From assembly GCA_002791275.1 (NCBI GenBank), contig PFWT01000009.1, forward strand, positions 8,797 through 72,796: 64,000 nucleotides of DNA, written 5' to 3'. Positions 4,838-57,220 of this stretch are shown here, piece after piece (position 1 is the first letter of the stretch; every line of letters begins with the position of its first letter). A model generated the notes under the pieces. It saw only the letters and a list, made by a program, of their open reading frames with translations, had not been told where the DNA came from and made no database searches. A program made the position numbers and the translations under genes. The DNA comes from Candidatus Uhrbacteria bacterium CG_4_9_14_3_um_filter_41_35. GTDB taxonomy: Bacteria > Patescibacteriota > Patescibacteriia > UBA9934.

Positions 4838-5014
4838 CGTCATTCTGAGGTGAACGTGGATCGTACCGAGGAATCTTATTGCCTCGTCATTCAGAGCCTA
4901 ACGTGAATCACGGCGAAGAATCTCAGTGTTGAATTACAGCGTAAACAAGTTTCTGTTTAGTAAAGAGCGAAGGAGATCCTTCAGCGTAATCTGGCGCTCG
5001 CTTCAGGATGACGG
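4838..5014. repeat. MITE-like composite repeat unit (locus A, copy 1: two head modules + body + tail)
   Basis: Begins CCGTCATTCTGAGGTGAACGTGGA and ends CTTCAGGATGACGG, an imperfect 14-bp terminal inverted repeat with 2 mismatches. Near-identical units recur at 23388-23560 and 36363-36950. Confidence 0.8.
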
Positions 5015-5079
5015 TATGGGTAAAGGGCGACTAATTAAAACAACGAAATAAAAAAAACACATCGCATTATCAAAACCAA

Positions 5080-5133
5080 ACCGTCATTCTGAGGTGAACG
5101 TGAACTACACCGAAGAATCTTAGTGCTGGATTA
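5080..5133. repeat. Partial head module of the same repeat family (locus A, copy 2), abutting the stop of the convergent ATP-grasp gene
   Basis: CCGTCATTCTGAGGTGAACGTGAACTACACCGAAGAATCT matches the head consensus. It is preceded by the conserved linker TATGGGTAAAGGGCGACTAATTAAAACAACG...AAAACCAAA. Confidence 0.7.
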
Positions 5134-6090
5134 CTTAGTCAGGTGTTCTAGTATTTTTTTCAAAACGTTCCTTGTTTTTCCGTAGGTTGGGTTGTAGTGA
5201 ATGAAATAATCTGGCTTGCCGTTAACTTCAAGTAGGTTGAATGTTCCCTTGGTTGGCTTGAGTGAAATATCTTCGCAAATAATGTCGATACCGATCAAAT
5301 TTTTACCAACAGCTTCGGTAGTTCTAACGCAGATTTTTTTTACATCTTCGTGTATTAAATCTGTAATATCTTTCGTTTCGCCACCTTCTGCGATACAGGA
5401 ATTCCCTTTAATATAAATAACCTCACCAGTTTTTGGAACGTTTGACAGCTTATAATTTTGCGAAGCAAGCATTTGTCTTAATAATTTGTCGAACTTTGTT
5501 TTACGTTTCGTTTCTTTTTGCTTGACCCTTATTAAGGTTTTAATATTTAAAATTCCATCACCAATAATATTCGGATGAATCATTTCAAGTCCAGCAATAA
5601 TTTCATTTTCGAGCACTAAGATTCTATATTCTTTACCACTAACCATTTCTTGCGCAACTAAACTGTCAAACCTTTTAATTTTTTGTTTTACAACCGCTAG
5701 CGCATCCTGGGGATTTTTGATATTAAGAACAATTCCAAGACTATTTGAACCTGTGGCGTCCTTAACAATGATCGGATAATGTAGTTTTTTTAGTTTCTTA
5801 AGAGCGGTGACTTTACTAAAACTACTTCTGTAAAAGCTCATTGTCTGTGGGGTTGGTAGATTTGATTTTTTTAAAAGTGTGTAGGTTAAATCCTTACATT
5901 TTGTTGTAGCAACGGTTGAGTAGGCGTTTTTTGGGATAGCAATATGGTACTCAAGAAACAGTTCTTGGTTATTGTACTCAACTAAATGACAGTCTCTTTC
6001 TTTTACAAAATTGGATATTTTTCCACCCGCTTTCGATATTACGCTCTGCATAATATCGAATTTACTATTCGTTGCTATTTTTTTAAACAT
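5131..6090 (-). CDS. ATP-grasp family protein (cyanophycin-synthetase/RimK-like fold), function unknown
   Basis: ATP-grasp-like motifs (KEYRILVLENEIIAG, GIDIICEDIS, LLEVNGKPD). Convergent with the RimK-like gene across the repeat locus. Confidence 0.5.
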   Translation of the reverse strand: MFKKIATNSKFDIMQSVISKAGGKISNFVKERDCHLVEYNNQELFLEYHIAIPKNAYSTVATTKCKDLTYTLLKKSNLPTPQTMSFYRSSFSKVTALKKLKKLHYPIIVKDATGSNSLGIVLNIKNPQDALAVVKQKIKRFDSLVAQEMVSGKEYRILVLENEIIAGLEMIHPNIIGDGILNIKTLIRVKQKETKRKTKFDKLLRQMLASQNYKLSNVPKTGEVIYIKGNSCIAEGGETKDITDLIHEDVKKICVRTTEAVGKNLIGIDIICEDISLKPTKGTFNLLEVNGKPDYFIHYNPTYGKTRNVLKKILEHLTK

Positions 6091-7357: not shown

Positions 7358-7948
7358 CTAATCATCAAAATCATCGTCATTGTCGTCGTTATCGTCATCG
7401 TAATCGTCGGAGTCAGAATTGTTTTCATTATTAATCAGATAGTCATCAAAATCATCTGTTTCATCTTCATCAGAGCTATCATTATCTAGATAATTTGTTT
7501 CGCCGTCGTTATCAATATCTTGATCAACTGCATCGCTTATACCATCACGATCAAGATCAGGTATATTCTGTTCAAGAGTGTCAACAAGACCGTTATTATT
7601 GTTATCAATATCAATGTCGTCGCTTAATCCGTCATTATCTTTATCGTAGTTTGCCTGATCAACAGTGTCTACAATTGTGTCTCCGTCCTCATCAGAATCG
7701 TCTATGTCATTAATTCCGTTGTTATTATGATCAAATGGATATTCATCATTTACGTCTAAGATATTGTCATTATCGTCGTCTTTATCAATTAAATCAATAA
7801 TTCCATCATGATCATTGTCGTGTGCAAACGCAGAATTACTATCTAATAACTGGCCAACTAAAAAGCCTAGTATAACAAAGCAAACCGAGGTAATAAGAAT
7901 GGTAATTTTTTTTGACATAGCTTTATGTAATGAATTAACGTATTTCAA
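7358..7948 (-). CDS. Membrane-anchored Asp-rich protein with five DxDxDG calcium-binding (thrombospondin type-3-like) repeats and a poly-D/N tail
   Basis: N-terminal TM helix ITILITSVCFVILGFLVG. Repeats DNDHDGIIDLID, DSDEDGDTIVD, DKDNDGLSDDID, DLDRDGISDAVD and DIDNDGETNYLD. The C-terminus is almost entirely D, N and S. Confidence 0.6.
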   Translation of the reverse strand: MKYVNSLHKAMSKKITILITSVCFVILGFLVGQLLDSNSAFAHDNDHDGIIDLIDKDDDNDNILDVNDEYPFDHNNNGINDIDDSDEDGDTIVDTVDQANYDKDNDGLSDDIDIDNNNNGLVDTLEQNIPDLDRDGISDAVDQDIDNDGETNYLDNDSSDEDETDDFDDYLINNENNSDSDDYDDDNDDNDDDFDD

Positions 7949-11202: not shown

Positions 11203-12966
11203 ATGCATAAAACTGCTCCGGCAAAAAACATGAAAAAGAAGAAAACCGAAACACGTCCCAGTATTCATAGTCTACTCGGATCCTATAAAAAATTTATTAT
11301 CCCGCTAGTTTTTTTAGCGCTATTAAGTAATGGCTTAACACTCTGGTTGCCACGACTCACGTCTCACGTGATTGATAGTTTTTCAACCTCAGCTAATCCA
11401 AACAAAGCACTACTTGAATTTGCGGTTGCTTCTAGTTTTGTATTTCTTCTGACTTTTGGCCAAACAATTTTGCAGACGCTAGCTTCTGAAAAAGTAGCAA
11501 AAGATTTACGTGACAAGTTGTCAGATAAAATTTCAAATCAGAGTTACGCTACTATTCAAAAAATTACACCAGCCAAACTTTTAACAAATTTAACGTCGGA
11601 TATCGACGCCATAAAAAACTTTGTTTCACAGGCAGTGGTGAACACCGTGTCTTCTATTTTTCTGATTATTGGTGGTAGTATTTTGCTAATCAGTATTGAC
11701 TGGCGCCTGGGTTTAGCAGTGCTTACAGTATTACCAATCATTGCTGGAGCGTTTATTTATATTTTTAGCAAGGTAAAAACTCTGTTTACCGAAACGCGTG
11801 AAGTGATTGATGCGCTTAATAAAGTTATTAACGAAAGTGTTGTTGGTTCGGCTCTGATTAGAATTGTGAATTCACGAGGACTAGAATTTAAGAAATTTCG
11901 AAAGGTTAACACGCAGGCGAAGCATCTTGGGATTAAGATAGTTAAACTTTTTGCCTCAATGATTCCAATTATAACTTTTTCTTCAAACCTTGCAGTGCTA
12001 ATTATTTTACTGTTTGGTGGAAAGTTCGTAATCAACGGTTCAATGACCTTGGGTGATTTTGCGTCGTTCAACAGTTATATAGTGATTCTAATTTTCCCAA
12101 TATTAATTTTGGGATTTGTAAGTAACATTGTTGCGCAGGCGCAGGCATCTTATGGTCGAATTTCCGAAATTCTCGGCTTGTCAGTGGGTGAAAAACAGGG
12201 AACGATTAAAAAAGAACTCAAAGGGGAGATTGAACTAAACAATGTGAGCTTAATTTACGGTGAAAAAAGTGCTTTAAAAGAGGTGTCGCTTCGTATTCAG
12301 TCAAAGAGTCGAACGGCAATTATTGGACCAACGGCAGCGGGGAAGACGCAACTGCTTAACTTACTGATCGGTTTGGTCCTGCCAAATGTTGGAACTGTAA
12401 CTTACGATGGTACGGAACTCAAGGATTTTGATAAAGAAAATTTGTACAAGCAGGTTGGTTTGGTTTTTCAAGACAGCATTTTGTTTAACCTTAGCTTGAA
12501 GGAAAATATTGCTTTTAGTACAGCGGTTTCTGAAGAGGATTTACAAAAAGCTATTGAAACCGCTGAGCTTGATGAGTTCATTCATACATTACCAAACGGT
12601 CTTGAAACCATAGTTTCAGAACGTGGAACTAGTTTATCCGGTGGGCAAAAGCAACGTATTATGCTGGCCAGAGCTTTGTCTTTAAACCCACGAGTTCTAC
12701 TACTTGATGATTTTACGGCCCGAGTTGATTCCAAAACCGAAGCAAAAATTTTGCAGAATATCACAAATAATTATCCGGCAATTACACTAGTTTCGGTTAC
12801 ACAGAAAATTTCTTCAGTTGAACATTATGATCAGATTATCGTTTTAATGGAGGGTGAGGTGATCGCGAGTGGTTTACACGATGAATTATTAAAGACATCA
12901 CCAGAGTATAATCAGATTTTCAATTCACAAAAAAGTACAAATATTTATGAATTACAGTCTAAGTAG
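11203..12966 (+). CDS. ABC exporter, fused permease/ATPase (type I exporter half-transporter)
   Basis: Six-TM N-domain plus an NBD with Walker A GPTAAGKTQ, signature LSGGQKQR and Walker B LLLDD. Confidence 0.85.
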   Translation: MHKTAPAKNMKKKKTETRPSIHSLLGSYKKFIIPLVFLALLSNGLTLWLPRLTSHVIDSFSTSANPNKALLEFAVASSFVFLLTFGQTILQTLASEKVAKDLRDKLSDKISNQSYATIQKITPAKLLTNLTSDIDAIKNFVSQAVVNTVSSIFLIIGGSILLISIDWRLGLAVLTVLPIIAGAFIYIFSKVKTLFTETREVIDALNKVINESVVGSALIRIVNSRGLEFKKFRKVNTQAKHLGIKIVKLFASMIPIITFSSNLAVLIILLFGGKFVINGSMTLGDFASFNSYIVILIFPILILGFVSNIVAQAQASYGRISEILGLSVGEKQGTIKKELKGEIELNNVSLIYGEKSALKEVSLRIQSKSRTAIIGPTAAGKTQLLNLLIGLVLPNVGTVTYDGTELKDFDKENLYKQVGLVFQDSILFNLSLKENIAFSTAVSEEDLQKAIETAELDEFIHTLPNGLETIVSERGTSLSGGQKQRIMLARALSLNPRVLLLDDFTARVDSKTEAKILQNITNNYPAITLVSVTQKISSVEHYDQIIVLMEGEVIASGLHDELLKTSPEYNQIFNSQKSTNIYELQSK

Positions 12967-22407: not shown

Positions 22408-23259
22408 ATGCTTCACAGACTATTCGCGGTGTCTAGTGTGTTGCCGATCGCTGATCCGGGGAGCTTAGCTCTCGTACCTATCAAAGGGTCAGAGAACCTG
22501 TACGTGGACTCGAGTTCTTTTTGCAATAACGAGGGCGATGCTATTCAAGTTATCGTTGAAGAGACTAATCTTGGCCTTGTGTTTAGACTACCGAGAGAAG
22601 CAGGATCTGTGCTACGAAATGTCCCACGCTCAGTTAAGAAGGCTATTCGCTACTGGCACGCAAGCTTAGTGGTTGAGGATCCAGATTTTGTTGATCAAAA
22701 CAAGATCGAAACTATGATCCATCCAAAGGGTCATACGGGCATTAAGGTCACAGTGTCGTATGATTCGGTCACTTTTCTTATTCGTGCACAGTCAGAACGA
22801 AAGGCACGGTTCCTTACAGAGCAGTGTTTACTAAATAAAGTAGAATATAGACTGCTTTATAACCGTCTTGAAGAGTTTGAAGCAAAGGCAAGCAAAACCT
22901 GGTCTAATAATCTAGCAAAAGATGCTAATCAATTGTGTCTGGCGTTAAATAGATGGACAAACGGACAGACTATCTACACAAAGTATTTCCCGGAGCTCAT
23001 TCAAACCCCGAACGGTGCACTGATCCAAACCGCCTACAAACATGAGGAATTGCTACTCGCAACAGTTTTGTATCAAGGAGAACCGTTAACTGTAATGTTT
23101 GGTCCAAGAGATTTTCGAACACAGTTTCTAAATATGGTCCTTTGTGGCTATTTAAAACAAGTCAGGCTAACCTCCGTTCAGGAGAAACTACTAAAGCGAT
23201 TGCTGGACGCTCTCTTTGCTAAGCAGTTTTTAGACAGAAGAAAAGAGCAGAGCCTGTAG
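22408..23259 (+). CDS. Hypothetical protein, no recognisable domain; compositionally GC-rich
   Basis: Long ORF with coding-like codon periodicity. GC about 48-50% against the background. Start inferred at MLHRLF. Confidence 0.4.
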   Translation: MLHRLFAVSSVLPIADPGSLALVPIKGSENLYVDSSSFCNNEGDAIQVIVEETNLGLVFRLPREAGSVLRNVPRSVKKAIRYWHASLVVEDPDFVDQNKIETMIHPKGHTGIKVTVSYDSVTFLIRAQSERKARFLTEQCLLNKVEYRLLYNRLEEFEAKASKTWSNNLAKDANQLCLALNRWTNGQTIYTKYFPELIQTPNGALIQTAYKHEELLLATVLYQGEPLTVMFGPRDFRTQFLNMVLCGYLKQVRLTSVQEKLLKRLLDALFAKQFLDRRKEQSL

Positions 23260-23387: not shown

Positions 23388-23560
23388 CCGTTATTCTGAG
23401 CCTAACGTGAATTATGGCGGAAATCTCATCATCTCGTCATTCTGAGCCAAACGTGAATCACGGCGAAGAATCTTATTACTGGATTACTAAGCAAATGTCG
23501 GTTATACACAAAACGAAGGAGATCCTTCAGCATGAATCAGCGCCAACTTCTGGGTGATAA
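23388..23560. repeat. MITE-like composite repeat (locus B: two head modules + degenerate body/tail)
   Basis: CCGTTATTCTGAGCCTAACGTGAAT and CGTCATTCTGAGCCAAACGTGAATCACGGCGAAGAATCT heads, followed by the body segment ...AAGGAGATCCTTCAGC as at loci A and C. Confidence 0.7.
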
Positions 23561-23698
23561 AAATGTAGGTGAGTTGTCCACTATTACCCTTGACTGGGGG
23601 CTTGAAATAGCCTAACTTAAATATATAGCTTAAAGAATTCGCTGGATCCATTTTGGGAAAAGCGTCTTTTTTTATACAAACTTTTACCACCAAAAACT

Positions 23699-25939: not shown

Positions 25940-26014
25940 TCGGGGGTAGCTCAGCGGCAGAGCAGGAGACTGTTAATCTCTTGGTCGTGGGTTCGATCCC
26001 CACCCCCCGAGCCA
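25940..26014 (+). tRNA. tRNA-Asn (anticodon GTT)
   Basis: Cloverleaf folded by hand: acceptor TCGGGGG/CCCCCGA, D-arm GCTC...GAGC, anticodon loop CTGTTAA (U33, GUU, A37), T-arm GTGGG-TTCGATC-CCCAC, encoded CCA. Confidence 0.8.
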
Positions 26015-36109: not shown

Positions 36110-36236
36110 ATATTTATTGAAATTGTTATAGCTTAAGTATACACCGATATTAAATTTATGCGAAGAAGATCAACCCCAGGTTAAGCCTGGGGTTATTATT
36201 TGATTTAATTTGATTTGCAAGTTTTTTATTTATTAT

Positions 36237-36287
36237 CTAAGACTGAGTTGCAGATGCGACTTAGTCGCATCTGCAACTCAGTCTTAG
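36237..36287. repeat. 24-bp perfect inverted repeat (palindrome) with 3-nt loop
   Basis: CTAAGACTGAGTTGCAGATGCGAC tta GTCGCATCTGCAACTCAGTCTTAG, with no T-run following. It lies between a 9-bp-stem hairpin (36170-36192) and the repeat cluster. Confidence 0.85.
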
Positions 36288-36362
36288 TTTGTGAGCATTT
36301 TATACTTACAAGGATTGTGTTTTATTTTTTCCAACATCGGACAAATTAGACAACGCACCAAA

Positions 36363-36950
36363 CTGTTATTCAGATCCTGGCGTGAACCACGGCGAAGAAT
36401 CTCATTACTGAATCACCAAATAAATGTCGGTTTAGTAAAGGGCGAAGGAGATCCTTCAGCGTGAATCGGCGCTCGCTTCAGGATGACGGTATGAGTGAGG
36501 GACAACTAATTATAACAACGACATAAAAAATTACATCGCATCATTAAAACCAAATCGTCATTCTGCGCCTAGTGTGAATCACGGCGAAGAATCTCATCAT
36601 CTCCTCATTCAGAGCCTAGCGTTTGGCACTTTGAAGAATCTAACCAAATCGTCATTCTGAGGTGAACGTGGATCACACCGAAGAATCTCATTACTGAATC
36701 ACCAAGCAAATGTCTGTTTAGTAAAGGGCGAAGGAGATCCTTCAGCGTAACCTGGCGCTCGCTTCAGGATGACGGTATGAGTGCGGGTCAAAATAATACA
36801 ATTACACCAAACAAACCAAACCGTCATTCTGAGGTGAACGTGGACCACACCGAAGAATCTCAGTGTTGAATTACAGCGTAAACAAGTCTCGATTCAGCAC
36901 AAACGAAGGAGATCCTTCAGTGTGAATCGTCGTCAGCTTCAGGATGACGG
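36363..36950. repeat. Cluster of three tandem MITE-like composite repeat units with conserved linkers (locus C)
   Basis: Units 36363-36489, 36555-36774 (three head modules) and 36821-36950. Each ends CTTCAGGATGACGG and is followed by a TATGAGTG...AAAACCAAA linker. Unit identity above 85%. Confidence 0.85.
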
Positions 36951-37045
36951 TTTGAGTGAAGGATTACAAATTTCTTTAAAAATTTAACAATCGACCAGTC
37001 AATTAAGTTGCTACAACTGTAAAAAAATGATAGATTCTGTCTATT

Positions 37046-45147: not shown

Positions 45148-45600
45148 ATGTTAATTAAGTTGTTAAAAAATCCTCGAGTTCAGCATCACGGGAATAGATT
45201 TGCTAAATTTGTTACGGTTGGCCTTGTATCAGCTTGTTTTGATTTGGGCATTCTAACTTTTTTAGTTGAGGTTTTTTCTTTTAATCTCTATTTTGCAAAC
45301 AGTATTTCTTTTTTTGTTGCGGTTAATGTTAGTTACAACTTGAATAAAAACTGGACTTTTAACAGTGTAAGTACATCAAAGCCTCGGCAAATCTATAAAT
45401 TTTTCACGATTGCGATTATTGGTTTTATGTTTAACCAAACCTCACTGTTTATTCTGACAAATTTGGGTATTTGGTACGTTTTTGCTAAGATAATGATGGT
45501 TAGCATGGTAGCTATTTGGAACTATTCAGCAAATTATTTATGGACTTTTAGCACTCGAGAAAAATATGAAAAAACTATCCATAATAATTCCAGTTTTTAA
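45148..45600 (+). CDS. GtrA-family membrane protein
   Basis: Four TM helices and the GtrA-like N-terminal KFVTVGLVSACFDLGILTFLVE. Confidence 0.65.
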   Translation: MLIKLLKNPRVQHHGNRFAKFVTVGLVSACFDLGILTFLVEVFSFNLYFANSISFFVAVNVSYNLNKNWTFNSVSTSKPRQIYKFFTIAIIGFMFNQTSLFILTNLGIWYVFAKIMMVSMVAIWNYSANYLWTFSTREKYEKTIHNNSSF

Positions 45601-46243
45601 CGAGGAATCGACGATTTTGGGCATTCTTAATAAGATTGAGGATGTGGATTTGGGTATTAAAAAAGAGATCATTTTTGTAGACGATGCCTCAACCGATGGT
45701 AGTGCTGAAATATTAAAATCAATTAGTTCAAAGTACAAAGTGATTTTCAAAATACATAATACCGGCAAGGGTTCTGCTATTCGCTCTGGCTTAGAGGCTG
45801 TGACTGGTGATTATGTGATAATTCAAGATGCTGACCTTGAATATGATCCGAATGATTATAAAAAATTACTAAATGTAGTAAATGCTGACCACGAGGTGGT
45901 TTACGGTTCGCGAAATCTAGAAAAAAACCTTCGAATAAATAATAAATATTATTGGGGTGGTCGGTTGATTACTTTTTTCACTAACTTACTTTACGGCAGT
46001 AGCTTAACGGACGTAAATACCTGTTATAAACTGTTTTCAACAGATTTACTTCGCTCGCTCGAGCTCGAACAGGATCGGTTTTCATTTTGTGAAGAATCAA
46101 CAGCTAAAGTATTAAAGAAAAACAAAACAATTATTGAAGTTCCGATCCAATATTATCCTCGGCACTTTTCTGAAGGAAAAAAAATTAGAGCAAAGGATGG
46201 ACTTATAGCAATATATACACTACTCAAATATCGGATTTTATGA
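45566..46243 (+). CDS. GT2 polyprenol-phosphate glycosyltransferase (Dpm1/GtrB-like)
   Basis: LSIIIPVFNEES, FVDDASTDGS and the DAD-containing IIQDADLEYDP. Confidence 0.8.
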   Translation: MKKLSIIIPVFNEESTILGILNKIEDVDLGIKKEIIFVDDASTDGSAEILKSISSKYKVIFKIHNTGKGSAIRSGLEAVTGDYVIIQDADLEYDPNDYKKLLNVVNADHEVVYGSRNLEKNLRINNKYYWGGRLITFFTNLLYGSSLTDVNTCYKLFSTDLLRSLELEQDRFSFCEESTAKVLKKNKTIIEVPIQYYPRHFSEGKKIRAKDGLIAIYTLLKYRIL

Positions 46244-47787
46244 TTACTTTTGAAAAAATTATCAATCAGTTCAGCAGTAAAATAACACGAAAACTTCAAA
46301 AAAAATTGTTCACCGGTTTGGTATTAGCTAGTGTCGTTGTACTGCACATCTTCCTCATTACGCAAAATATTTCAGATCTATTTTTAAGATACAATGAAGA
46401 TAACAACGCACTTTACTCAATCGCAGCGCAGAATTTGGTCAGCGACGGCGCCCTCCACTTAAAGTTTGGTTTAGTAACCGGAAAAATTATCGAAGGAGCG
46501 GAACTGCAGTACTATACACATCACCCAAGTTTTTTTGTTTTACCAACCGCGCTAGTGTACGCAATTTTTGGTGTAAGTGAACTCACAACTCGTTTAGCAC
46601 CGATTATTTTTTCTGTGATGTCGGTTGTCCTAATGTTTTTACTGGTACTTGAAACTCGAAAAAAACTTTTGCTCGCTTTTTTTGCTGGTTTTGTAATGGC
46701 TACGGCTCCAGCCCTGGCGTTTTATGGCAAGATGCTTGACCCTGAAATATTCGTAATCTTTTTTTCGCTCCTTTCAATCTATTTATTCTACTTAAGAAAA
46801 CGGATTGAAAATCAATATCTCAGCTACGCGTTACTCGGCGTAATTTTACTTGGCACGACCATGGGTTGGCATTTTTATTTCACTGGATTTGTGATTTGGC
46901 TAGCTATTATCAGTGAAAAACAATACCCCAACCGCAAATTGTTCACGTTTGGACTACCGCTTCTAGTGCTTGTTACGGTTACTTTACAGGTTGGCCAGTT
47001 TTGGTTGTTAGGTGGAGAGAGTGGCGTTGCGGGATTTTTAGATGCTGGTGCTCTTAGAACCGAAGGGGTTGCCTGGTCAGTATGGTCCCGTAAAATGCTC
47101 ACGATTGGTCAATATGAGTATTCGGCTGTTGCAATCTTTGTTGCGTCTGCTTGGGCGATATTTTCAGCCTCACTATCAATTAAGCGCCGAGAATTTAGCA
47201 TATCTGCAATACTCCTCTTAATACCTCTACTTATAATGGTGATCTTTAGAGAATGGATGATGCACTTTTACTCACTAATGTACTTCGCGCCCTTTATCGC
47301 ACTAGCTTTAGCGGAGGTACTGAATATTTCATACGAAGTGTTAAAGAAGATCTCGGGTTCTAAACTAATTGCAGGACTAGTCGTGTTCTATCTTCTGCTT
47401 GGTCAGTATTTTTTCACGACTCAAGCCTTGGCTTTCTTTAAAACAGCTTTTTCAGTAGACGAAAGTACTGTGGAAACTCTCAAGTCTCTAAAATCTGCAA
47501 AAACTCAGGATATAATTTGCTACGGAGAGAGTAGCTCTGGGCAAGTAGTTGATGCGATTTATGGATTTTATTTAGATGCGAGAATGTACAATTTTAAGAA
47601 TTGTGTAAATGAAAATAAAGCAAATTTAGCAGTGATAGGAAATCCGCAAATTAGTAATTTTGAAAACAGGGTCTATGAAGAATACCAGAAAATAGGTTAT
47701 ACTATGTTAGGGTGCGGAGGAAAAATATGTGTGCTTGGCTTAACTCCGCTTGAGACACTTCAAAATAATCAAGAAAATGAACAATAA
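46240..47787 (+). CDS. GT-C family membrane glycosyltransferase (ArnT/PMT-like)
   Basis: More than 10 TM helices. N-terminal loop motif YSIAAQNLVSDG...ELTTRLAPIIFSV typical of ArnT/PMT_2. Translationally coupled to the upstream GT2. Confidence 0.6.
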   Translation: MITFEKIINQFSSKITRKLQKKLFTGLVLASVVVLHIFLITQNISDLFLRYNEDNNALYSIAAQNLVSDGALHLKFGLVTGKIIEGAELQYYTHHPSFFVLPTALVYAIFGVSELTTRLAPIIFSVMSVVLMFLLVLETRKKLLLAFFAGFVMATAPALAFYGKMLDPEIFVIFFSLLSIYLFYLRKRIENQYLSYALLGVILLGTTMGWHFYFTGFVIWLAIISEKQYPNRKLFTFGLPLLVLVTVTLQVGQFWLLGGESGVAGFLDAGALRTEGVAWSVWSRKMLTIGQYEYSAVAIFVASAWAIFSASLSIKRREFSISAILLLIPLLIMVIFREWMMHFYSLMYFAPFIALALAEVLNISYEVLKKISGSKLIAGLVVFYLLLGQYFFTTQALAFFKTAFSVDESTVETLKSLKSAKTQDIICYGESSSGQVVDAIYGFYLDARMYNFKNCVNENKANLAVIGNPQISNFENRVYEEYQKIGYTMLGCGGKICVLGLTPLETLQNNQENEQ

Positions 47788-48628
47788 AATTGCAATAATC
47801 GGTGAGGGAGGCGGTATGCGTAACGCAATTACGGCGGGTTTTATTGTTGGAACAGGTTTAAATCCGTCAGATGTTGACGCTTATTATGGCACGTCATCAG
47901 CAATTGGAAATGGCCTTTACTTTGCAACCGGTCAATCGGATCACGCGCTTGAAATGTGGGTTCATAAACTTACCACAACCGAGGTTATGGACTACAAAAA
48001 CGCTTTTCGGGGCAGATATATGGCGGATATTGATCATATGGTCGATAACGTCTGCTCCTCGCTCGATGTTGAAAAATTACAACATTCAAAAATGAAAATT
48101 GTGGCTAGTGTTGTAAAAAAACAAAGTGGCGAAATTGAATATTTAGAATTGAGTGATCATAATTTTAGAAATGTTTTCAAAGCAACCTGTTCGATTCCGT
48201 ACATCTCACGACCGATTATAATTGATGAAAACGAATATGTAGACGGCGGCATTGGTGATAATTTCGTGATCTTGAAGGCATACGAAGATGGTTATCGGAA
48301 TTTCATAGTCCTTAATAATCAGCCAAAAATTGTTGGTTATACAGCGGAATTTGCTAAAGCAGTGGTGGATAAAATGTCTGAAAAAGGGATGCGAAACGCT
48401 ATGAAACTCCTTATAAAAAATTACGAAACCGCCTGGGAGTTTACGCAGAACCCACCAGAGGGCGTTAATATTTATCAGTTTGTGCCAACGCACAGTCAAA
48501 CGATTTCAAAGTTTGAGCGTGATCCGGATAAGGTAAAAAGTATTTATCTGCAAGGAGTTGGTCTTGGTAAACTAGCGGAAAAAGAGGTAGCTGAATTTAT
48601 TCAACAAGCAAAAATGTCTCAGAATTAA
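47777..48628 (+). CDS. Patatin-like phospholipase
   Basis: GGGMRNAITAG (GxGxxG), nucleophile elbow GTSSA and catalytic-Asp motif VDGGIGDN. Confidence 0.7.
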   Translation: MNNKIAIIGEGGGMRNAITAGFIVGTGLNPSDVDAYYGTSSAIGNGLYFATGQSDHALEMWVHKLTTTEVMDYKNAFRGRYMADIDHMVDNVCSSLDVEKLQHSKMKIVASVVKKQSGEIEYLELSDHNFRNVFKATCSIPYISRPIIIDENEYVDGGIGDNFVILKAYEDGYRNFIVLNNQPKIVGYTAEFAKAVVDKMSEKGMRNAMKLLIKNYETAWEFTQNPPEGVNIYQFVPTHSQTISKFERDPDKVKSIYLQGVGLGKLAEKEVAEFIQQAKMSQN

Positions 48629-48864
48629 TTCTGAGACATTTTCACAACTTCTTCGAGTCTACGGTCTAAATCATCGCTTCCGCCGATGAAAACATCGCCA
48701 ACAAATATTTGTGGCACAGTCATATGGCCACTTCTAGCTTTAAGTTCATCAAATTCTTCTGAAGACGTTAGTACGTGCTCTTCATACTTTAGACCAGCGT
48801 TTTCAAGGGTCATTTTTGCTTTTGTGCAGTACGGACAGTGACTTTTTGTGTAAATTTTGATCAT
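48625..48864 (-). CDS. Glutaredoxin
   Basis: CPYC active site, 79 aa, the TVPQIF motif and the GG/DD motif. Confidence 0.75.
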   Translation of the reverse strand: MIKIYTKSHCPYCTKAKMTLENAGLKYEEHVLTSSEEFDELKARSGHMTVPQIFVGDVFIGGSDDLDRRLEEVVKMSQN

Positions 48865-49631
48865 ATTTTGAATGATTTAAGATTATTAGTGGCGATAAAA
48901 CCCGGGTTCAGCAGATCCTCTTTATTATAACTCAGAGGTTTATTTTCAAGGTCATTAATGTACCCACCAGCTGCTTCTAGCACTGCGTGCGCAGCCGCCG
49001 TATCCCATTCCATACAAGATGGCCTGAGTCTAGGATAGATATCGGCTGTACCTTCAGCAATGGCGAGAATCTTGAGCGAACTCCCAATATTTTTAATATC
49101 TGGGTTTCTAAACTGTTCAATAAATCGGGCAGTTGCGTCGTCCAAATGATTTTTTGAAGCCACGACTCTGAGGGGCTCCGCGGTTTCTGAAACGTGAATC
49201 TGTTTTTGCACACCAGCCTCTTTGATAAATGCTCCTCCACCGACCGAGCCCCAATATAATTTTTGGGTGGCTGGCACGTAAACTACACCAAGCACAGGTG
49301 TATCATTTTCAATGAGGGCGATGTTAACTGTAAAGTCAGGTTCGCGGCGAACAAAAGATTTGGTGCCGTCAAGCGGATCAACGAGCCAATATTTTGTGAA
49401 AGATTGGCGGCCACTAAACGGTATTTGTATATTTTCTTCGGAAAGAACAGGTAGTCCGGTTGATTCTAAAACGGAATTGATAATATCGTTTGCGGTTTTG
49501 TCAGCCTTGGTGACTGGTGAATCGTCAGCCTTGTATTCGGTAGCGAAGTCCTCGGATACAAAAACATCCATAATGGCCAGTCCAGCTTTAATAGCTACCT
49601 CTTTGGCAATACTTAGTAATTCAGAATTCAT
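48861..49631 (-). CDS. cysQ: 3'(2'),5'-bisphosphate nucleotidase (CysQ, inositol monophosphatase family)
   Basis: WLVDPLDGT metal-binding motif. Lies directly downstream of cysNDC. Confidence 0.75.
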   Translation of the reverse strand: MNSELLSIAKEVAIKAGLAIMDVFVSEDFATEYKADDSPVTKADKTANDIINSVLESTGLPVLSEENIQIPFSGRQSFTKYWLVDPLDGTKSFVRREPDFTVNIALIENDTPVLGVVYVPATQKLYWGSVGGGAFIKEAGVQKQIHVSETAEPLRVVASKNHLDDATARFIEQFRNPDIKNIGSSLKILAIAEGTADIYPRLRPSCMEWDTAAAHAVLEAAGGYINDLENKPLSYNKEDLLNPGFIATNNLKSFKI

Positions 49632-49632
49632 A

Positions 49633-50883
49633 TTAAATTATCATACCAGACGCCACGGTTTCGTTAGTGGCTTCGTCGATCAGAATTATACTGCCTGTTT
49701 GTCTGTTGCGCCTGTAACTATCGCAAAAAATCGGTTGAGCGGTGCGTAGTTTGACGCGAGCGATATCGTTCATTTGAATATTTTTATCCAATTTTTTACG
49801 TGAAAGCGTGTTCACGTCTACCTTGTAAATAACCTCTTTAATAATCGCCTTTACCTCGTTTGTGGTGTGGCGGAGGTAATATTTCGCTCGGTCTTTTGGC
49901 GGGGTGCCAGAGAGCCAGCATAACATTAAATCAACATCCTGCGTAACCGTAGGTTGATTGTTAACGCGCGCTAGCATATTGCCCCGGCTAATATCCACGT
50001 CATCAGCTAAAGTAATCGTGACTGAATCGCCAGCTTCGGCGCTCTCCAATTTTTCAGTATAACTCTCGATTGTTTCGATTGTGGTTGAAAGACCAGAAGG
50101 CAAAACAATAATTTCTTCGCCTGGTTTCAAAATACCACCAGCTACTTTACCCGTATAACCGCGGTAATCATGAAACTCATCCGTGTGCGGCCTGATAACG
50201 CTCTGAACAGGGAAGCGGGCGTCGATTTTGTTAAGGTCAGAACCAATGTGAATAGTTTCAAGCAGATAAAGGAGAGTTGACCCCTCGTACCAAGGCATAG
50301 CGCTCGAACGATCTACAACGTTATCGCCGTGCAGAGCAGAAACTGGAATAAATTGTACGTCAGTCACTTCGAGTTTATGCGAAAAAGCTTTAAACTCATC
50401 GACAATATTTTGAAAAACAGATTCGCTGTAATCCACTAAATCCATTTTGTTTACACAGATAATAATGTGCGGGATCTGCAATAGACTGGCAATAAAAGCG
50501 TGGCGCTTGGTTTGCTCAACAATCCCGTGACGCGCATCCACCAGAATAAGCGCCAAGTTAGCGGTTGAAGCCCCGGTGACCATATTGCGTGTGTATTCAA
50601 TATGGCCTGGAGTATCGGCGATGATAAATTTGCGCTTTTTAGTTTTGAAATAACGGTAAGCAACGTCAATAGTAATACCTTGCTCACGTTCACTTTTTAA
50701 GCCGTCAGTGAGAAGTGCGAGCTCAACACGATCAAGACCACGCTGTTTGCTCGAGAACTCAATCGCGTCGAGCTGATCCTGATAAATTGATTTTGTATCA
50801 TAAAGCAGGCGACCAATCAGGGTACTCTTGCCATCGTCTACACTACCTGCGGTGGTGAATCTTAAGAGATCAATATTTTTCAT
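49633..50883 (-). CDS. cysN: Sulfate adenylyltransferase subunit 1 (CysN GTPase)
   Basis: G1 motif GSVDDGKSTLIGRLL, the DTPGH motif (IIADTPGHIEY) and the NKMD motif (ICVNKMDL). Start set at MKNIDLL; the longer ORF overlaps cysD. Confidence 0.85.
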   Translation of the reverse strand: MKNIDLLRFTTAGSVDDGKSTLIGRLLYDTKSIYQDQLDAIEFSSKQRGLDRVELALLTDGLKSEREQGITIDVAYRYFKTKKRKFIIADTPGHIEYTRNMVTGASTANLALILVDARHGIVEQTKRHAFIASLLQIPHIIICVNKMDLVDYSESVFQNIVDEFKAFSHKLEVTDVQFIPVSALHGDNVVDRSSAMPWYEGSTLLYLLETIHIGSDLNKIDARFPVQSVIRPHTDEFHDYRGYTGKVAGGILKPGEEIIVLPSGLSTTIETIESYTEKLESAEAGDSVTITLADDVDISRGNMLARVNNQPTVTQDVDLMLCWLSGTPPKDRAKYYLRHTTNEVKAIIKEVIYKVDVNTLSRKKLDKNIQMNDIARVKLRTAQPIFCDSYRRNRQTGSIILIDEATNETVASGMII

Positions 50884-50884
50884 A

Positions 50885-51832
50885 CTAAAAATAACCAGAT
50901 TTTTTCCTATCTTCCATTGCAGTTTCGGTGCGTTTGTCGTCTGATCGTGTGCCACGTTCTGAGGTTAGACTGCCGGCGATTTCAAGGATCACCTCGTCCA
51001 CTGTGGTTGCACTTGAAATCATAGCTCCGGTGCAGGTAATGTCGCCAATGGTTCGAAAACGGACGGTCATTATTTTTGACTGTTCGTTGTCTTTCATCTG
51101 AATTAAACCGGCGTCGGCGAGTAATTGACCGTCGCGCTCAAAAACTTTTCGCTCATGACTGAAATATAATCCTGGCAAGTTAATATTTTCAGCTTTAATA
51201 TAATTCCAAACGTCTTCCTCAGTCCAATTACTGATCGGAAACGCCCGAAAATGTTCGCCAGGTTGTTTGTGACCGTTTAATAAATTCCAAAGTTCCGGCC
51301 GTTGATTTTTCGGGTTCCACTCACCGAACTCGTTCCGATGTGAAAAAATCCGTTCTTTGGCCCGCGCCTTTTCCTCGTCGCGCCGAGCCCCACCAATTGC
51401 GCAGTCGAATTGGTTTTTTTCTAAAACATCGAGCAAGGTTGTGGTCTGTAACTTATTCCGACTGGCGTAAAAGCCTAATTCCTCTTGTACACGTCCATTT
51501 TTTATCGACTCTTCAACCGAACCGATGATTAGTGTAGTACCGAGCTCGGCATTTAGTGCATCGCGAAAAGCTATCGTTTCTGGAAAATTATGACCAGTAT
51601 CGATGTGGAGTAGGGGGAAGGGGATCTTACCTGGATAAAAAGCTTTTTTAGCCAAGTGCACCAAGGTGATTGAGTCTTTACCGCCTGAAAATAACAAAAC
51701 TGGCCGCTCAAATTGAGCAACTATTTCTCGAAATATATAAATAGAGTCTGACTCTAATTCTTTGAGGTAGGTATCCACATTTTCAGTTACAAAATCCTCG
51801 GCAGAATATAGCCAAGAATTATTTCTAAACAT
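50885..51832 (-). CDS. cysD: Sulfate adenylyltransferase subunit 2 (CysD)
   Basis: PAPS-reductase-fold PP-loop LLFSGGKDS and the CysD-like region YLKELESDSIYIFREIV. Confidence 0.85.
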   Translation of the reverse strand: MFRNNSWLYSAEDFVTENVDTYLKELESDSIYIFREIVAQFERPVLLFSGGKDSITLVHLAKKAFYPGKIPFPLLHIDTGHNFPETIAFRDALNAELGTTLIIGSVEESIKNGRVQEELGFYASRNKLQTTTLLDVLEKNQFDCAIGGARRDEEKARAKERIFSHRNEFGEWNPKNQRPELWNLLNGHKQPGEHFRAFPISNWTEEDVWNYIKAENINLPGLYFSHERKVFERDGQLLADAGLIQMKDNEQSKIMTVRFRTIGDITCTGAMISSATTVDEVILEIAGSLTSERGTRSDDKRTETAMEDRKKSGYF

Positions 51833-52311
51833 TCCTCCTCTGACTGCTCACTCGTGTTTACGATTATATCAGGATTTTGCGGTTTTTCGTAGGGTGATGT
51901 GATTCCGGTAAAATTCTCAATCTCACCATTTCGAGATCTTTTGTAGAGACCTTTGATATCGCGCGCCTCGCAAACTTCGAGCGGGCAATCAACATGAACT
52001 TCTATAAAACGATCCGCTCCCACGGTTGCTCTGATGTTTTGCCTAGCTTGTTCAAACGGAGCGATGAATGAGGCGATCACGGTTTGACCCGAATCCGCTA
52101 AAATCTTGGCAACCGCACCCGCCCGACGTAAATTCTCAGTTCTGTCAATTTCAGAAAAATTTAAATCGCTACACAGATGTTCACGTAGAACATCGCCATC
52201 TAGTTGGTAGGCACTAACTGATCGCTCGCGTAACTCAGTGTGAAGTGCTTTAGCTAAAGTAGATTTTCCAGAGCCAGAAAGTCCGGTTAATAAAATAACG
52301 ACACTGTTCAT
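51787..52311 (-). CDS. cysC: Adenylyl-sulfate kinase (APS kinase)
   Basis: P-loop LTGLSGSGKSTLA, and 174 aa typical of CysC. Confidence 0.85.
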   Translation of the reverse strand: MNSVVILLTGLSGSGKSTLAKALHTELRERSVSAYQLDGDVLREHLCSDLNFSEIDRTENLRRAGAVAKILADSGQTVIASFIAPFEQARQNIRATVGADRFIEVHVDCPLEVCEARDIKGLYKRSRNGEIENFTGITSPYEKPQNPDIIVNTSEQSEEECLEIILGYILPRIL

Positions 52312-52312
52312 A

Positions 52313-53239
52313 TTAAACTTTCCAGTGAGTAAGATCTCGATTTAACAGTTGTTCAATAAATTCGGTGTCTTCAAGAAATTTTGGCAATATTTCCTTTCGT
52401 AAATCTTGACTAAGCGGTTCGTATTTCACTACTACTGGATGCAACCTGAAAACATCAAAAATCAATTTTTTAGCTTTGAATATAGGTCGTTTTAAAGAAA
52501 GGGGTAAGTTATAAAAAATATGATTATTTGAAAAAAGAGCGCTAATTCTTGTGATTATTTTCGATCTTGGAATTGTATGCGGATTAAAATTTATATCTCC
52601 TTTTTTTACTGTAAAATTTGGATCAATATCTAAAAACTCAAAAACACGCTTCAACTCTCGTTCCTGATTAGTCTTAAAATCATCAAACAAAATAAATATA
52701 AATTGCTCTCGATTAAAAAGTTCAAATAACTCTAAAATTCGCGCTTTATAGTGACTGCTTTTTGCAAAATAGTTAAATCGTGGATGATTTTTTTTATATA
52801 AATCCTCAAAACTATTAATAGTTTTGTGTGCAATATTAACCTTAACCTCTTGTTGATAATGGGAATAAAGTCGATCTACAGGATCTCGAAGCATTACAAT
52901 GAAACGAGCATCACTAAAATACTCCTTTAATAATTTGTGTGATGACTTTTCAAAAAAATATGAAACCGAGGCATCACCGATCGCTTTCTCGGTTGCAACC
53001 TCACGATAACACGTTTCATACCATTTCCAGCCTCGGTAAAACGAACCACAATAATGATTTTTATCCGTAATTTTTTTAAATCCATTTAAAGCCAGATAAG
53101 ATTCCGCCTCACAAGCTAATAGAAAGTTCAGTTCTTTATCTTTTGGAATAAAGGCCTCCGGGTGTTGCATAAGGATTTGCGCTAGTGCGGTTGTCCCTGC
53201 TTTAGCAGCACCGAGAATGAAAAAATTAGGTTTGACCAT
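52313..53239 (-). CDS. PAPS-dependent sulfotransferase
   Basis: 5'-PSB motif FFILGAAKAGTTAL and 3'-PB motif VMLRDPVDRLYSHY. First gene of the minus-strand operon, immediately upstream of cysC. Confidence 0.75.
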   Translation of the reverse strand: MVKPNFFILGAAKAGTTALAQILMQHPEAFIPKDKELNFLLACEAESYLALNGFKKITDKNHYCGSFYRGWKWYETCYREVATEKAIGDASVSYFFEKSSHKLLKEYFSDARFIVMLRDPVDRLYSHYQQEVKVNIAHKTINSFEDLYKKNHPRFNYFAKSSHYKARILELFELFNREQFIFILFDDFKTNQERELKRVFEFLDIDPNFTVKKGDINFNPHTIPRSKIITRISALFSNNHIFYNLPLSLKRPIFKAKKLIFDVFRLHPVVVKYEPLSQDLRKEILPKFLEDTEFIEQLLNRDLTHWKV

Positions 53240-53351
53240 ATTTAACGATTACGCTCCTATACTATCATTACCGTGCAAATATATGAAATATTAGTTTTGT
53301 TCTACAAATAGTTGTATGCTAAAATGACTTTAAAATTATTAATCTTGAAAT

Positions 53352-54281
53352 ATGCAAGAACTTGTTGAAAAAAGGGCTGAATTAAGAAAGGCGTTTGATC
53401 GTGTAATGCCAGATATTCAAGAATTTAACAATGTTTACGTCGGGGCTGGAGTAATGAAATTACTCAAAAAGATTTTGAAGTACAAAATGAAGTACGTGCG
53501 TTATTTACTGGCGCGGTTTGGGATTTACCGAAGCGATGTAAAAGTTGAGTTATTCTGGGGGCCAACAATTAAACTACCGATCCACGACGCTGAAGTAATG
53601 CCAGTGTTTATTTTAAAAGCTTTACCTTCGAGTGAATATAAATTAACGCGATATTTAATCAATTCACTACAACCAAATGACGTTTTTTACGACGTTGGAG
53701 CCAATTATGGTTTGTATAGTGGTTTAGCTGGTGAAATCATTAGTAGTGGTGAAATCCACGCGTTTGAACCTAATCCGGAGATCTTTAAATATTTAATTGG
53801 TGGTCTTGGCTCAAAATATAAGAAAATCAGTTGTGTAAAAAAAGCCTTATCAAATCAGGTTGATAAACTCACTTTTTACGTTAAACGAAACTCAAGCGGT
53901 GGAAGTACTTTAAACGGTGAGGTGGCCTCTACGCTGAAGAGTAATTTTGATGCGATCAATGTACCATGTATCACACTCGATTCATACATCAAAAATCACC
54001 GTTTGCCAACCTTTATGAAGTTAGACGTTGAAGGGGCTGAGCATTTCGTGATTGAAGGCGCAACTGAGTTATTTAAACGAACAAAACCAGTAATTTCACT
54101 TGAAGTTTGGGGGGCTGAAACTGGTGACCGTTTTTCAAGAAAAGCCTCTGAAATGCTCATCAAACTTGGCTACGCACCACATAGAATTAACGATAATGGG
54201 GAACTGAATGAAATTGAAAGTATTGATTCAATGAATTTAGCTAGTAACGAGGTTGAAAATGTTATTTTCAAAGCAAAATAA
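53352..54281 (+). CDS. FkbM-family SAM-dependent methyltransferase
   Basis: Methyltransf_21 motif FYDVGANYGLYS and downstream conserved acidic residues. Confidence 0.7.
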   Translation: MQELVEKRAELRKAFDRVMPDIQEFNNVYVGAGVMKLLKKILKYKMKYVRYLLARFGIYRSDVKVELFWGPTIKLPIHDAEVMPVFILKALPSSEYKLTRYLINSLQPNDVFYDVGANYGLYSGLAGEIISSGEIHAFEPNPEIFKYLIGGLGSKYKKISCVKKALSNQVDKLTFYVKRNSSGGSTLNGEVASTLKSNFDAINVPCITLDSYIKNHRLPTFMKLDVEGAEHFVIEGATELFKRTKPVISLEVWGAETGDRFSRKASEMLIKLGYAPHRINDNGELNEIESIDSMNLASNEVENVIFKAK

Positions 54282-55413: not shown

Positions 55414-55479
55414 CTTGGTCTCAACATTCTAGTGCAATTTAGTGATAGGATCACTGAGTATGCAAAATAGTCAATATAA

Positions 55480-55799
55480 ACGGCTTTCAATAGAGGATCG
55501 GGAAGAAAATGAGTCAGCACAAGTAATTTGTTATCTCAACTGGTATGACGGCATATTTTGCACACCCTGCTAGCCCTTGGGAGCGGGGAACGAAAGACTT
55601 TAACCTACGACCAAGGAAAAGAAACGAAAATACTAACGGACTTATCCGTCAGTATTTTCCAAAAGGTACAGAATTCGATAAGGTGTCTACACGGGAACTC
55701 AAACGCGTCTAGTGCGAACTAAACGACCGTCCAAGAGCAGTTCTTGAATATTACAAACCAGATGAAGTATTTAATAATTTAGTTGCACTAAAAGTTTGA
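55480..55799 (+). pseudogene. Degraded C-terminal remnant of an IS30-family transposase
   Basis: Frame reading [13 protein letters not shown]...[21 protein letters not shown]...(TAG)...ELNDRPRAVLEYYKPDEVF matches the IS30 transposase C-terminus. It is interrupted by an in-frame stop and an upstream frameshift. No intact N-terminal or DDE region. Confidence 0.6.
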
Positions 55800-56135
55800 G
55801 ACCAAGTTAAATACCTTGGTCTTCCACCAGGCTGGAGATTTTATATAGACAATGAAGGTCATGAAGATGTTTGGTATGACCCCAAGTTGCTGCAAATTCA
55901 TGACTAAATGATTTGAGCAAAACTCAGGGGCTAAGCCTCGCCTAACACGCGATATCCAAAATTTGTTTCGTTTCATTTAAACAAACTTCGGATATCGCGG
56001 ATACGTTGTACGACATATTTTTCAATATTTTTTCTCAAATAGAAATTTTGTTGAAGAATTTAAAAAGGAATGGAATTTTTATTTTTTTATTATAATGAGG
56101 GGGATAAGAGGTTGATTTAGAAAATATCATCGATT

Positions 56136-57218: not shown

Positions 57219-57220
57219 AT

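Follow-up and report, generated by a model that had tools for sequence, protein, structure and literature searches.

Arrays of CGTC-tagged hairpin units in a Candidatus Uhrbacteria genome as a probable long-loop family of REP elements

The 64-kb stretch of contig PFWT01000009.1 studied here (hereafter the window) belongs to Candidatus Uhrbacteria bacterium CG_4_9_14_3_um_filter_41_35, a member of the Patescibacteria or candidate phyla radiation (CPR), and harbors three intergenic loci of one family of short repeats at positions 4838-5138 (locus A), 23389-23569 (locus B), and 36364-36975 (locus C). The proteins of the window are identical to those of Candidatus Uhrbacteria metagenome-assembled genomes from Crystal Geyser, this one among them. 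Locus A lies between two convergent ATP-grasp genes, one of which reads into the repeats from the - strand (5131-6090, with its stop codon at 5131-5133), and the genes flanking arrays in the window have ordinary housekeeping functions. The repeats share the same orientation in all window copies, with the modules known as head units on the + strand. In a first-pass annotation they had been described as a previously undescribed modular family of head, body, and tail units resembling miniature inverted-repeat transposable elements (MITEs). We confirm the modular family but interpret it differently: the arrays are probably clusters of CGTC-tagged repetitive extragenic palindromic (REP) units, of a new family with long loops that is hosted by a CPR bacterium, and are laid out like neisserial intergenic mosaic elements (NIMEs) or the bacterial interspersed mosaic elements (BIMEs) of E. 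coli.

The repeat family is real and far above chance expectation. Within the window, the sequence CGTCATTCTGAG has 8 matches with up to 1 mismatch, exclusively on the + strand, compared to a shuffled expectation of 0.18, and GAAGGAGATCCTTCAG has 5 matches compared to 0.02 in shuffles, while repeat finding sorts the copies into families of 4 to 6 members. A covariance model of the head unit, built on 37 distinct head modules and run unfiltered over all 64 kb, detects 10 head units on the + strand (E 2e-13 to 1e-6), and where the "tails" lie it detects 4 units on the - strand (E 3e-5 to 9e-5). It has no further significant match in the 64 kb, and all of its matches fall within loci A, B, and C. 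The repeat sequences at 4838-5133, 23388-23560, and 36363-36950 are as initially described, the modular multi-locus organization with inverted termini is borne out, and the proposed "at least 6 units" resolve into 5 complete units (dimers) and a truncated one. At its gathering threshold, Rfam recognizes only tRNA in the whole window and nothing over related units at 18 loci from other phyla, and at a permissive threshold the best sub-threshold matches in array C are chance hits of the microRNA type.

The basic unit is a hairpin of 39 to 40 nt. It is composed of a CGTC tag that stays unpaired, an A/T-rich foot of 5 bp that opens with A-T and then T-A (ATTCT/AGAAT for heads and ATCCT/AGGAT for tails), a tandem G.A/A.G interruption that we predict to be of the sheared type, a covarying inner stem of 3 to 4 bp, an apical region of around 13 nt with a GTG/CAC mini-hairpin of 3 bp, and a CT(C) tail. 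Head units read CGTCATTCTGAGCC...GGCGAAGAATCT, and tail units, when reverse-complemented, read CGTCATCCTGAAGC...GCTGAAGGATCT. Because the head-unit covariance model matches 4 tails on the - strand (E ~3e-5), the tail is seen to be an inverted copy of the same kind of hairpin unit and not the separate module that it had been taken for. Each complete unit is therefore a tag-outward (head-to-head, HH) inverted pair around a conserved spacer, and indeed all 21 distinct complete units are arranged tag-outward with spacers of 44-51 nt that belong to few sequence types.

In the window, this dimer spacer, or body, measures 46-50 nt and comes in 2 main variants. The bodies are mosaics of a few alternative segments whose two arms do not always pair, and the small GAAGG-agat-CCTTC hairpin previously assigned to them is actually the junction of spacer and inverted unit. 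Heads follow each other in strict phase with a period of 47 nt, made up of a unit of 39 nt and a spacer of 8 nt (for instance CATCATCT or AACCAAAC), and are reiterated 1 to 3 times per dimer in the window, as had been noted for a head of roughly 47 bp, and up to 4 times in related contigs. The dimers are connected by linkers of 68, 67, and 47 nt (~30% GC), which are A-rich and conserved as proposed. GC content thus rises and falls in a wave along the arrays (0.46-0.57 in units versus 0.29-0.35 in linkers). The linkers hold degenerate fragments of units, so that the whole array is built from few blocks, and the array ends fall within linker-like sequence. As recognized from the beginning, these are not CRISPR arrays, since the 8-nt tandem spacers, linkers, and bodies are all conserved and no cas domains are found in the window.

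Locus A begins with a slightly degenerate head unit (4838-4876, + strand, model E 6e-10) that carries a CGTC tag and a GGTG/..ACC inner stem. It is followed after 8 nt by a second head unit with a GCC/GGC inner stem (4885-4923, +, E 2.2e-13), a body of the CAGTGTTGAATTACAGCG... variant (4924-4973, +) delimited by repeat families and unit alignment, and an inverted unit of the ATCC/GGAT type (4974-5013, -, E 3.2e-5) that forms an HH dimer with head unit 2. An A-rich inter-dimer linker of ~30% GC (5014-5081, +) then leads to a third head unit (5082-5120, E 1.3e-12) that is joined to the first 18 nt of a truncated body (together 5082-5138, +). Locus B comprises a degenerate and an intact head (23389-23426 and 23435-23473, E 1e-6 and 3.1e-13) separated by an 8-nt spacer (together 23389-23473, +), followed by a body and a degenerate inverted unit at 23520-23560 (together 23474-23569, listed on the +), the latter missed by the head-unit covariance model. 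Locus C is the largest, with 3 dimers. The first (36364-36488) combines a head with a degenerate tag (36364-36402, E 1.2e-8), a body, and an inverted unit (36449-36488, -, E 3.2e-5), and is linked by A-rich DNA of 29% GC (36489-36555, +) to the second (36556-36774), in which 3 phased heads (36556-36594, 36603-36641, and 36650-36688, with E 5.9e-12, 6.8e-8, and 1.2e-12, respectively) precede a body and an inverted unit (36735-36774, -, E 3.2e-5). A short linker variant (36775-36821, +) connects to the third dimer (36822-36975), composed of a head (36822-36860, E 1.8e-12), a body, an inverted unit (36910-36949, -, E 8.5e-5), and a partial linker remnant.

The hairpin is supported by covariation among the 37 distinct head units, a check already suggested by the first-pass annotation. 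In the proposed structure, 93.6% of cells are paired, compared to 27-52% when the partners are slid against each other, and the observed covariation score is not reached by any shuffle. Pair 13-29 is CG in 19 units, GC in 10, and AU in 3, and pair 14-28 is CG in 19, UA in 10, and UG in 3. The foot is close to invariant, with A-U at pair 5-37 in 35 of the 37 units and U-A at pair 6-36 in all of them, and each of the tag columns 1-4 keeps its base (C, G, T, and C, respectively) in at least 90% of units, with TGTC, CCTC, and CGTT as variants. Cells of the head stems without Watson-Crick pairing are G.T in 21 cases and A.C in only 4 when read on the tagged strand, which suggests that this is the folding strand; the corresponding count for tail units is 6 versus 3, which are small numbers. 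When single units are folded and compared to shuffles, the + strand scores z = -4.35 and the - strand z = -6.12, while DNA parameters give z = -0.54 for the + strand, with 61 of 200 shuffles folding at least as well.

For the complete dimer, RNAalifold predicts a four-way fold from 20 distinct units on the head-sense strand, in which a helix of 11 bp joins the head 5' box to the tail 3' box, the head 3' box is paired to the tail 5' box, and head, body, and tail form local hairpins, the body hairpin with many G.U pairs on the + strand. The long-range helix contains a U.G pair in 20/20 units, and this pair is one of the two mismatches of the 14-bp terminal inverted repeats (TIRs) reported initially. 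The other mismatch (G12 versus a U of the tail box) would be a G.U pair by inspection, though in the predicted fold G12 joins the local head stem. The inverted termini as such stand, and both of their "mismatches" are transitions that give G.U wobbles on the + strand. From this modeling, it seems that a tag-outward dimer can fold either as one long hairpin or as a four-way structure. Two other readings of the UGA...GAA core, as a hammerhead ribozyme or as a k-turn, were rejected on inspection given that there is no CUGA pocket, no 3-nt bulge, and a continuous helix. Similarly, a small ORF after the Shine-Dalgarno-like GAAGGAGAT was discarded because it is not conserved among the copies.

Array C is preceded by a composite "leader" (36172-36363, +) that recurs at other array loci. 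Its parts are a small GC hairpin (CCCCAGG..CCTGGGG), a microsatellite of (GATTT)n or (GGTTT)n that varies in length, an AT-rich tract, a 25+1+25 palindrome with perfectly matching arms (36237-36287), a hairpin made by GTGAGCA/TGCTCAC, and TAGACAACGCACCAAAC adjoining the first head unit. This composite is found upstream of arrays at at least 5 distinct loci (the window, L126, L129/L132, L140, and L141) and partly at another one (L137). The palindrome, CTAAGACTGAGTTGCAGATGCGACT-N-AGTCGC...CTTAG, is identical between the loci apart from its central base, except in L126 where the end of one arm also differs. It is absent from the viral contigs searched, among which no more than 5 contain the generic unit. 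A scan of array C and its leader for sigma-70-like promoters gave nothing above shuffles. It is conceivable, though we consider it unlikely, that arrays and leader together constitute a distinct type of functional locus in CPR bacteria, which might be either an independently expressed multi-hairpin RNA or the recognition and assembly site of the machinery that mobilizes CGTC REPs. In the latter case, these tiny genomes would lend themselves to a search for the missing CGTC REP enzyme.

Across the loci, the upstream gene is co-directional with the head-to-tail direction at 10 of 14 arrays, plus one tRNA. The fully flanked arrays lie between convergent (5), unidirectional (3), or divergent genes (4). 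At many loci, the terminator-like hairpins of flanking genes usually stand between the gene and the array, suggesting that most arrays are located outside the neighboring transcription units. Two arrays or leaders are found just downstream of tRNA genes and their terminators (L137 ~1130-1200 and L141 ~12410-12450), and in the window, a tRNA-Asn gene (25940-26014) sits 2.4 kb from array B. Over the 64 kb, cumulative GC skew increases monotonically, indicating that a single replichore is sampled; the head units of all three arrays are on the G-rich (+) strand, though 3 loci are too few to speak of a bias.

Structure, leader, and context all bear on a first alternative, namely that the arrays are independently transcribed structured noncoding RNAs with repeated hairpins—possibly regulators or protein sponges expressed from the leader—and that the repeated DNA is a by-product of selection on these RNAs. 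The excess of G.T over A.C in the head stems, the U.G pair in all 20 units, the G.U-rich body hairpin, and the stable folding of + strand units are consistent with this idea, but the - strand folds at least as well, the wobble count of tail units is only 6 versus 3, and the bodies are mosaics in which the arms do not always pair. A conserved, palindrome-bearing leader ahead of arrays at at least 5 loci would fit expression from this element, yet no sigma-70-like promoter rises above chance there or in array C, the units have no following terminator, and Rfam has no match. With arrays often past the terminator of the upstream gene, any transcription would have to be independent, as the RNA reading proposes. 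Each unit also contains one copy each of two GGA-containing motifs, GAAGGAGAU and CAGGAUG, which we take to resemble binding motifs of CsrA/Rsm proteins. However, unit number and composition vary freely among loci without any fixed architecture, and the same hairpin unit is dispersed in many phyla without fixed context. We therefore regard an RNA as the selected entity as unlikely and place it second among the explanations.

In JGI metagenomes, a family-specific pattern matches 19 stretches, of which all but one (18) are outside the window and all come from samples of the Crystal Geyser type. These 18 stretches contain dozens more units at at least 12 distinct loci, which excludes a local tandem duplication, the case that the first-pass annotation had set against its own proposal. 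The stretches range from 38% to 46% in GC content, suggesting that several related genomes carry the family, and one contig of 41.6 kb has three arrays. Three loci retrieved through protein clusters at 90% (L122-L124) match the window with 100% identity and are hence uninformative, and only one of the metagenome loci (L130) overlaps the window in synteny. Several metagenome and Logan contigs (L125, L128, L137, L138, L141, L142, L143, and L150) start or end in or beside arrays, and one NCBI assembly has only a truncated version of the ABC-F gene beside array C (PIZ53136.1, on a contig of 2.7 kb); short-read assemblies are evidently broken by the repeats.

A sister species, with 89% amino acid identity in RecQ and ~81% nucleotide identity, is syntenic with the window over more than 13 kb but lacks array B. 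By blastn against its contig (L149), the window from ~22260/22310 to 23569 is replaced by ~50-100 nt, and homology restarts at 23570, exactly at the right edge of the array. The missing stretch of 1.26 kb holds the array, a terminator hairpin, and an orphan ORF (22408-23259, 283 aa) without any match in Pfam, NCBIfam, PHROG, or PDB and without a homologue among 5.8 billion proteins; as an orphan, it was discarded as a candidate for an element-associated gene. From this comparison, array B was gained or lost after the species split. At the site of array A, a contig of the sister species (L150) shows an inverted head unit that abuts the ATP-grasp stop codon before the contig ends 18 nt further. 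Array A is thus present in both species and older than their split, though the unit in the sister species is of the other type, with a GCC/GGC inner stem instead of GGTG/CACC. The end of this gene also shows that the repeats are not always purely intergenic as had been claimed: the truncated body at locus A (5121-5138) supplies the last two codons and the stop (T-K-stop) of the ATP-grasp gene. The protein accordingly ends differently in the two species (..LTKH-stop versus ..LTK-stop), and the stop codon of the sister species directly overlaps the unit tail (L150 3950-4019), an example of gene ends being reshaped by REP units. Elsewhere, two assemblies with flanks of at least 99% identity carry 1 and 2 dimers, respectively (L129 versus L132).

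To place the family among known repeats, we scanned reference genomes for a general unit pattern, CGTCATYCTGAR-N19-27-GAAGRATCT, whose matches represent a lower bound. At least 120 loci in many phyla (L002-L121) carry it, compared to ~10 expected by chance according to a rough estimate. Among the phyla of the matches listed are Acidobacteriota, Chloroflexota, Bacillota, Bacteroidota, Omnitrophota, and Proteobacteria. In nearly all matches the interior differs but is self-complementary, ~31% are followed by an inverted partner within 250 nt, and folding of the interiors favors the tagged strand over its complement (75 versus 25). A second purine-rich internal loop (GAGCGGAGCC..GGCGGAGCGAAG) is present in many of the listed acidobacterial copies. 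Judging from the matches listed, long-loop relatives of the unit seem to be common, often as inverted pairs, in Acidobacteriota, Chloroflexota, Bacillota, Bacteroidota, and other phyla, with Acidobacteriota, Chloroflexota, and Bacillota being additions to the five phyla given for CGTC REPs in 2013. No gene family is enriched near these 120 cross-phylum units, and the idea of GIY-YIG nuclease or RAYT genes (for REP-associated tyrosine transposases) beside such repeats was dropped for want of any recurring neighbor family around them.

The properties of the unit closely parallel those of the superfamily of CGTC-tagged REPs (Di Nocera, De Gregorio & Rocco 2013, BMC Genomics 14:522; PMC3733652). 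In these elements the CGTC tag, in many cases TGTC or CCTC, is unpaired, the stem opens with A-T and then T-A, and the 3-base tail is mostly CCA (PMC3733652). They form mainly tag-outward (HH) heterodimers with conserved and partly structured spacers, frequently contain G.T pairs, and fall into sub-families distinguished by complementary changes in the stem (PMC3733652). They are intergenic with occasional overlap of ORF ends, have no dedicated transposase, and include dRS3 of Neisseria and RPE-4 and RPE-6 of Rickettsia (PMC3733652). Just like them, the Uhrbacteria unit is a short intergenic stem-loop repeated many times (14 significant units in 64 kb), with a CGTC tag and its TGTC and CCTC variants, the same A-T/T-A stem opening, HH dimers, and conserved spacers. 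Common to both are also a short tail, stem sub-types with complementary changes, G.T pairs, overlap with ORF ends, and the lack of a linked transposase. With the defining features of a published class in place and NIME arrays equally known (PMC1797815), the description as a previously undescribed MITE is not supported. What would be new within the class is the CPR host phylum, the longer interrupted stem, the larger loop, the 47-nt phasing, and the leader. In the literature searched, we found no report of REPs or MITEs in CPR bacteria, and a search for the literal unit sequence returned only unrelated primer matches.

The comparison across phyla also speaks to the possibility of a classical MITE, i.e., a deletion derivative of an insertion sequence (IS) that is moved by a DDE transposase acting on terminal inverted repeats of 13-14 bp. 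The inverted termini (CCGTCATTCTGAGG and CTTCAGGATGACGG) gave rise to this view, but each such "TIR" is part of a self-folding REP hairpin that is also seen in direct tandem and as partial copies, and the same termini occur in many phyla with unrelated interiors, unlike the lineage-specific MITEs. Their size (125-270 bp) and intergenic position would be fitting, as would the presence and absence of array B in sister species, yet no target-site duplication is definable at the array ends or at the empty site of locus B. No transposase is found in the window or near related units, no parent IS was found, and the published CGTC REPs are likewise without an associated transposase. In the window, which is the part of the genome that this search covered, none of the 62 ORFs encodes a transposase, integrase, or HUH domain and there is no match to Y1_Tnp. 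Taken together, we consider an origin as classical MITE very unlikely.

As arrays, the repeats most closely resemble the NIMEs of Neisseria, in which units of dRS3 are split by conserved RS spacers into arrays with a GC wave and strain-variable length (PMC1797815). Both have inverted-repeat units of the CGTC type between conserved spacer families (~50-150 bp), alternating GC content, other repeat types interleaved, and, it seems, variable length. However, dRS3 is a 20-bp ATTCCC-N8-GGGAAT element, whereas the Uhrbacteria unit is twice as long, has a structured loop, and shares only the CGTC-ATTC...GAAT part with it. Similarly, there are few spacer families in Uhrbacteria compared to the >100 RS families in NIMEs, and no link of the arrays to surface-antigen genes or a prophage recombinase was seen, unlike for NIMEs.

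CPR bacteria are thought to be naturally competent, and the arrays might be kept as NIME-like recombination scaffolds because a site-specific recombinase acting on REP units promotes the exchange of flanking genes with incoming DNA. The layout with CGTC-type units between conserved spacers of 45-66 nt parallels NIMEs in this regard (PMC1797815), and the GC wave and the varying unit number would also fit, but the mechanism of NIMEs is itself hypothetical and no recombinase was found in the window. A gene-containing indel, the 1.26-kb stretch, does abut array B, yet it is the single array-adjacent indel seen, and the flanking genes have housekeeping functions instead of encoding surface antigens. 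This explanation hence appears highly improbable to us, and any role as recombination hotspot or as RNA would be at most secondary.

Among other mosaic repeats, the REPINs and BIMEs of gamma-proteobacteria share with the Uhrbacteria arrays the inverted REP doublets that are foldable as one long hairpin, the mosaic clusters with conserved inter-REP motifs, and the non-autonomous nature. They have a GTAG tag and are mobilized by RAYTs, whereas the Uhrbacteria units have a CGTC tag, and neither in the window nor between flanking units did we find a gene for a RAYT or Y1 transposase. The BOX elements of pneumococci (boxA-boxB(n)-boxC) are modular as well, with a module of ~45 nt that is reiterated variably and a strong predicted secondary structure. 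We take their layout of head, repeated module, and tail to be similar to the Uhrbacteria arrays, though their reiterated module is presumably internal, whereas in Uhrbacteria it bears the terminal inverted repeat itself.

Several points weigh against the assignment of the arrays to CGTC REPs, beginning with the unit itself. The four described CGTC families have stems of 8-9 bp and loops of 4-5 nt, with atypical loops in few species (PMC3733652), compared to the Uhrbacteria stem of 5 bp plus G.A/A.G plus 3-4 bp with an apex of ~13 nt. The Uhrbacteria tail is CT followed by C, T, or A, unlike the CCA of the described families, and phased head-to-tail tandems and clusters are usual, whereas in those families clusters are rare and head-to-tail arrangements negligible. 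Patescibacteria are not among the five phyla listed for CGTC REPs (Proteobacteria, Chlorobi, Bacteroidetes, Spirochaetes, and Thermotogae; PMC3733652). The arrays are also often located beyond terminators, whereas classical REPs lie within 20 bp of stop codons. Furthermore, we judged superfamily membership from the text description of the published families and not from their consensus, so that it should be read as a likely assignment. The wobble bias, the invariant U.G pair of the long-range helix, and the G.U pairs of the body favor folding of the head-sense strand and fit a role as RNA, just like the co-directionality of the upstream gene at 10 of 14 arrays. The compensatory changes and the G.T bias are counts of sequences and not of independent events, and could reflect few ancestral variants or gene conversion. 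As for dynamics, no transposition event, target-site duplication, or mobilizing enzyme was seen, the difference at locus B is a complex 1.26-kb indel that could be a deletion in the sister species, and the variation between 1 and 2 dimers could be an assembly collapse, though it may be a real polymorphism.

Two further observations concern the gene content of the window. A very Asp/Asn-rich, acidic low-complexity protein of 196 aa with an N-terminal hydrophobic segment is encoded at 7358-7948 on the - strand and has no match in Pfam. At 45148-58495, a gene cluster encodes a CysN-like GTPase, a CysD-like protein (PAPS_reduct), and an APS kinase for sulfate activation. It further comprises a sulfotransferase and an FkbM methyltransferase as well as several glycosyltransferases and a sugar transferase, a gene content that suggests the synthesis of a sulfated surface glycan, which is an uncommon trait for a CPR genome.

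Balancing all evidence, we still favor CGTC-tagged REP units as the most probable explanation, with the units as non-autonomous DNA of the REP type. We infer that they would spread through single-stranded hairpin intermediates with the help of an enzyme that acts in trans and has no gene in the vicinity, and the hairpin of the tagged strand may be maintained by selection or by the copying mechanism itself. Recombination or slippage between the phased units would then lengthen and shorten the arrays, which may persist since terminator-distal intergenic DNA tolerates them.

The genomes of CPR bacteria are small, ~1 Mb by our own estimate, and are usually regarded as streamlined. CGTC REPs are an old puzzle in that they are widespread, with a tagged end conserved across phyla, yet have neither a known transposase nor an agreed function. 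An elaborate and actively varying family in a CPR bacterium would extend the host range of these elements. In practical terms, such arrays break short-read assemblies, and in metagenome-assembled genomes they give rise to spurious ORFs and alter the ends of genes. Candidate enzymes are few in small CPR genomes, and a comparison of genomes that carry the family with others that lack it could help to pin down the mobilizing one, which offers a small chance of a route to the missing machinery of CGTC REPs.

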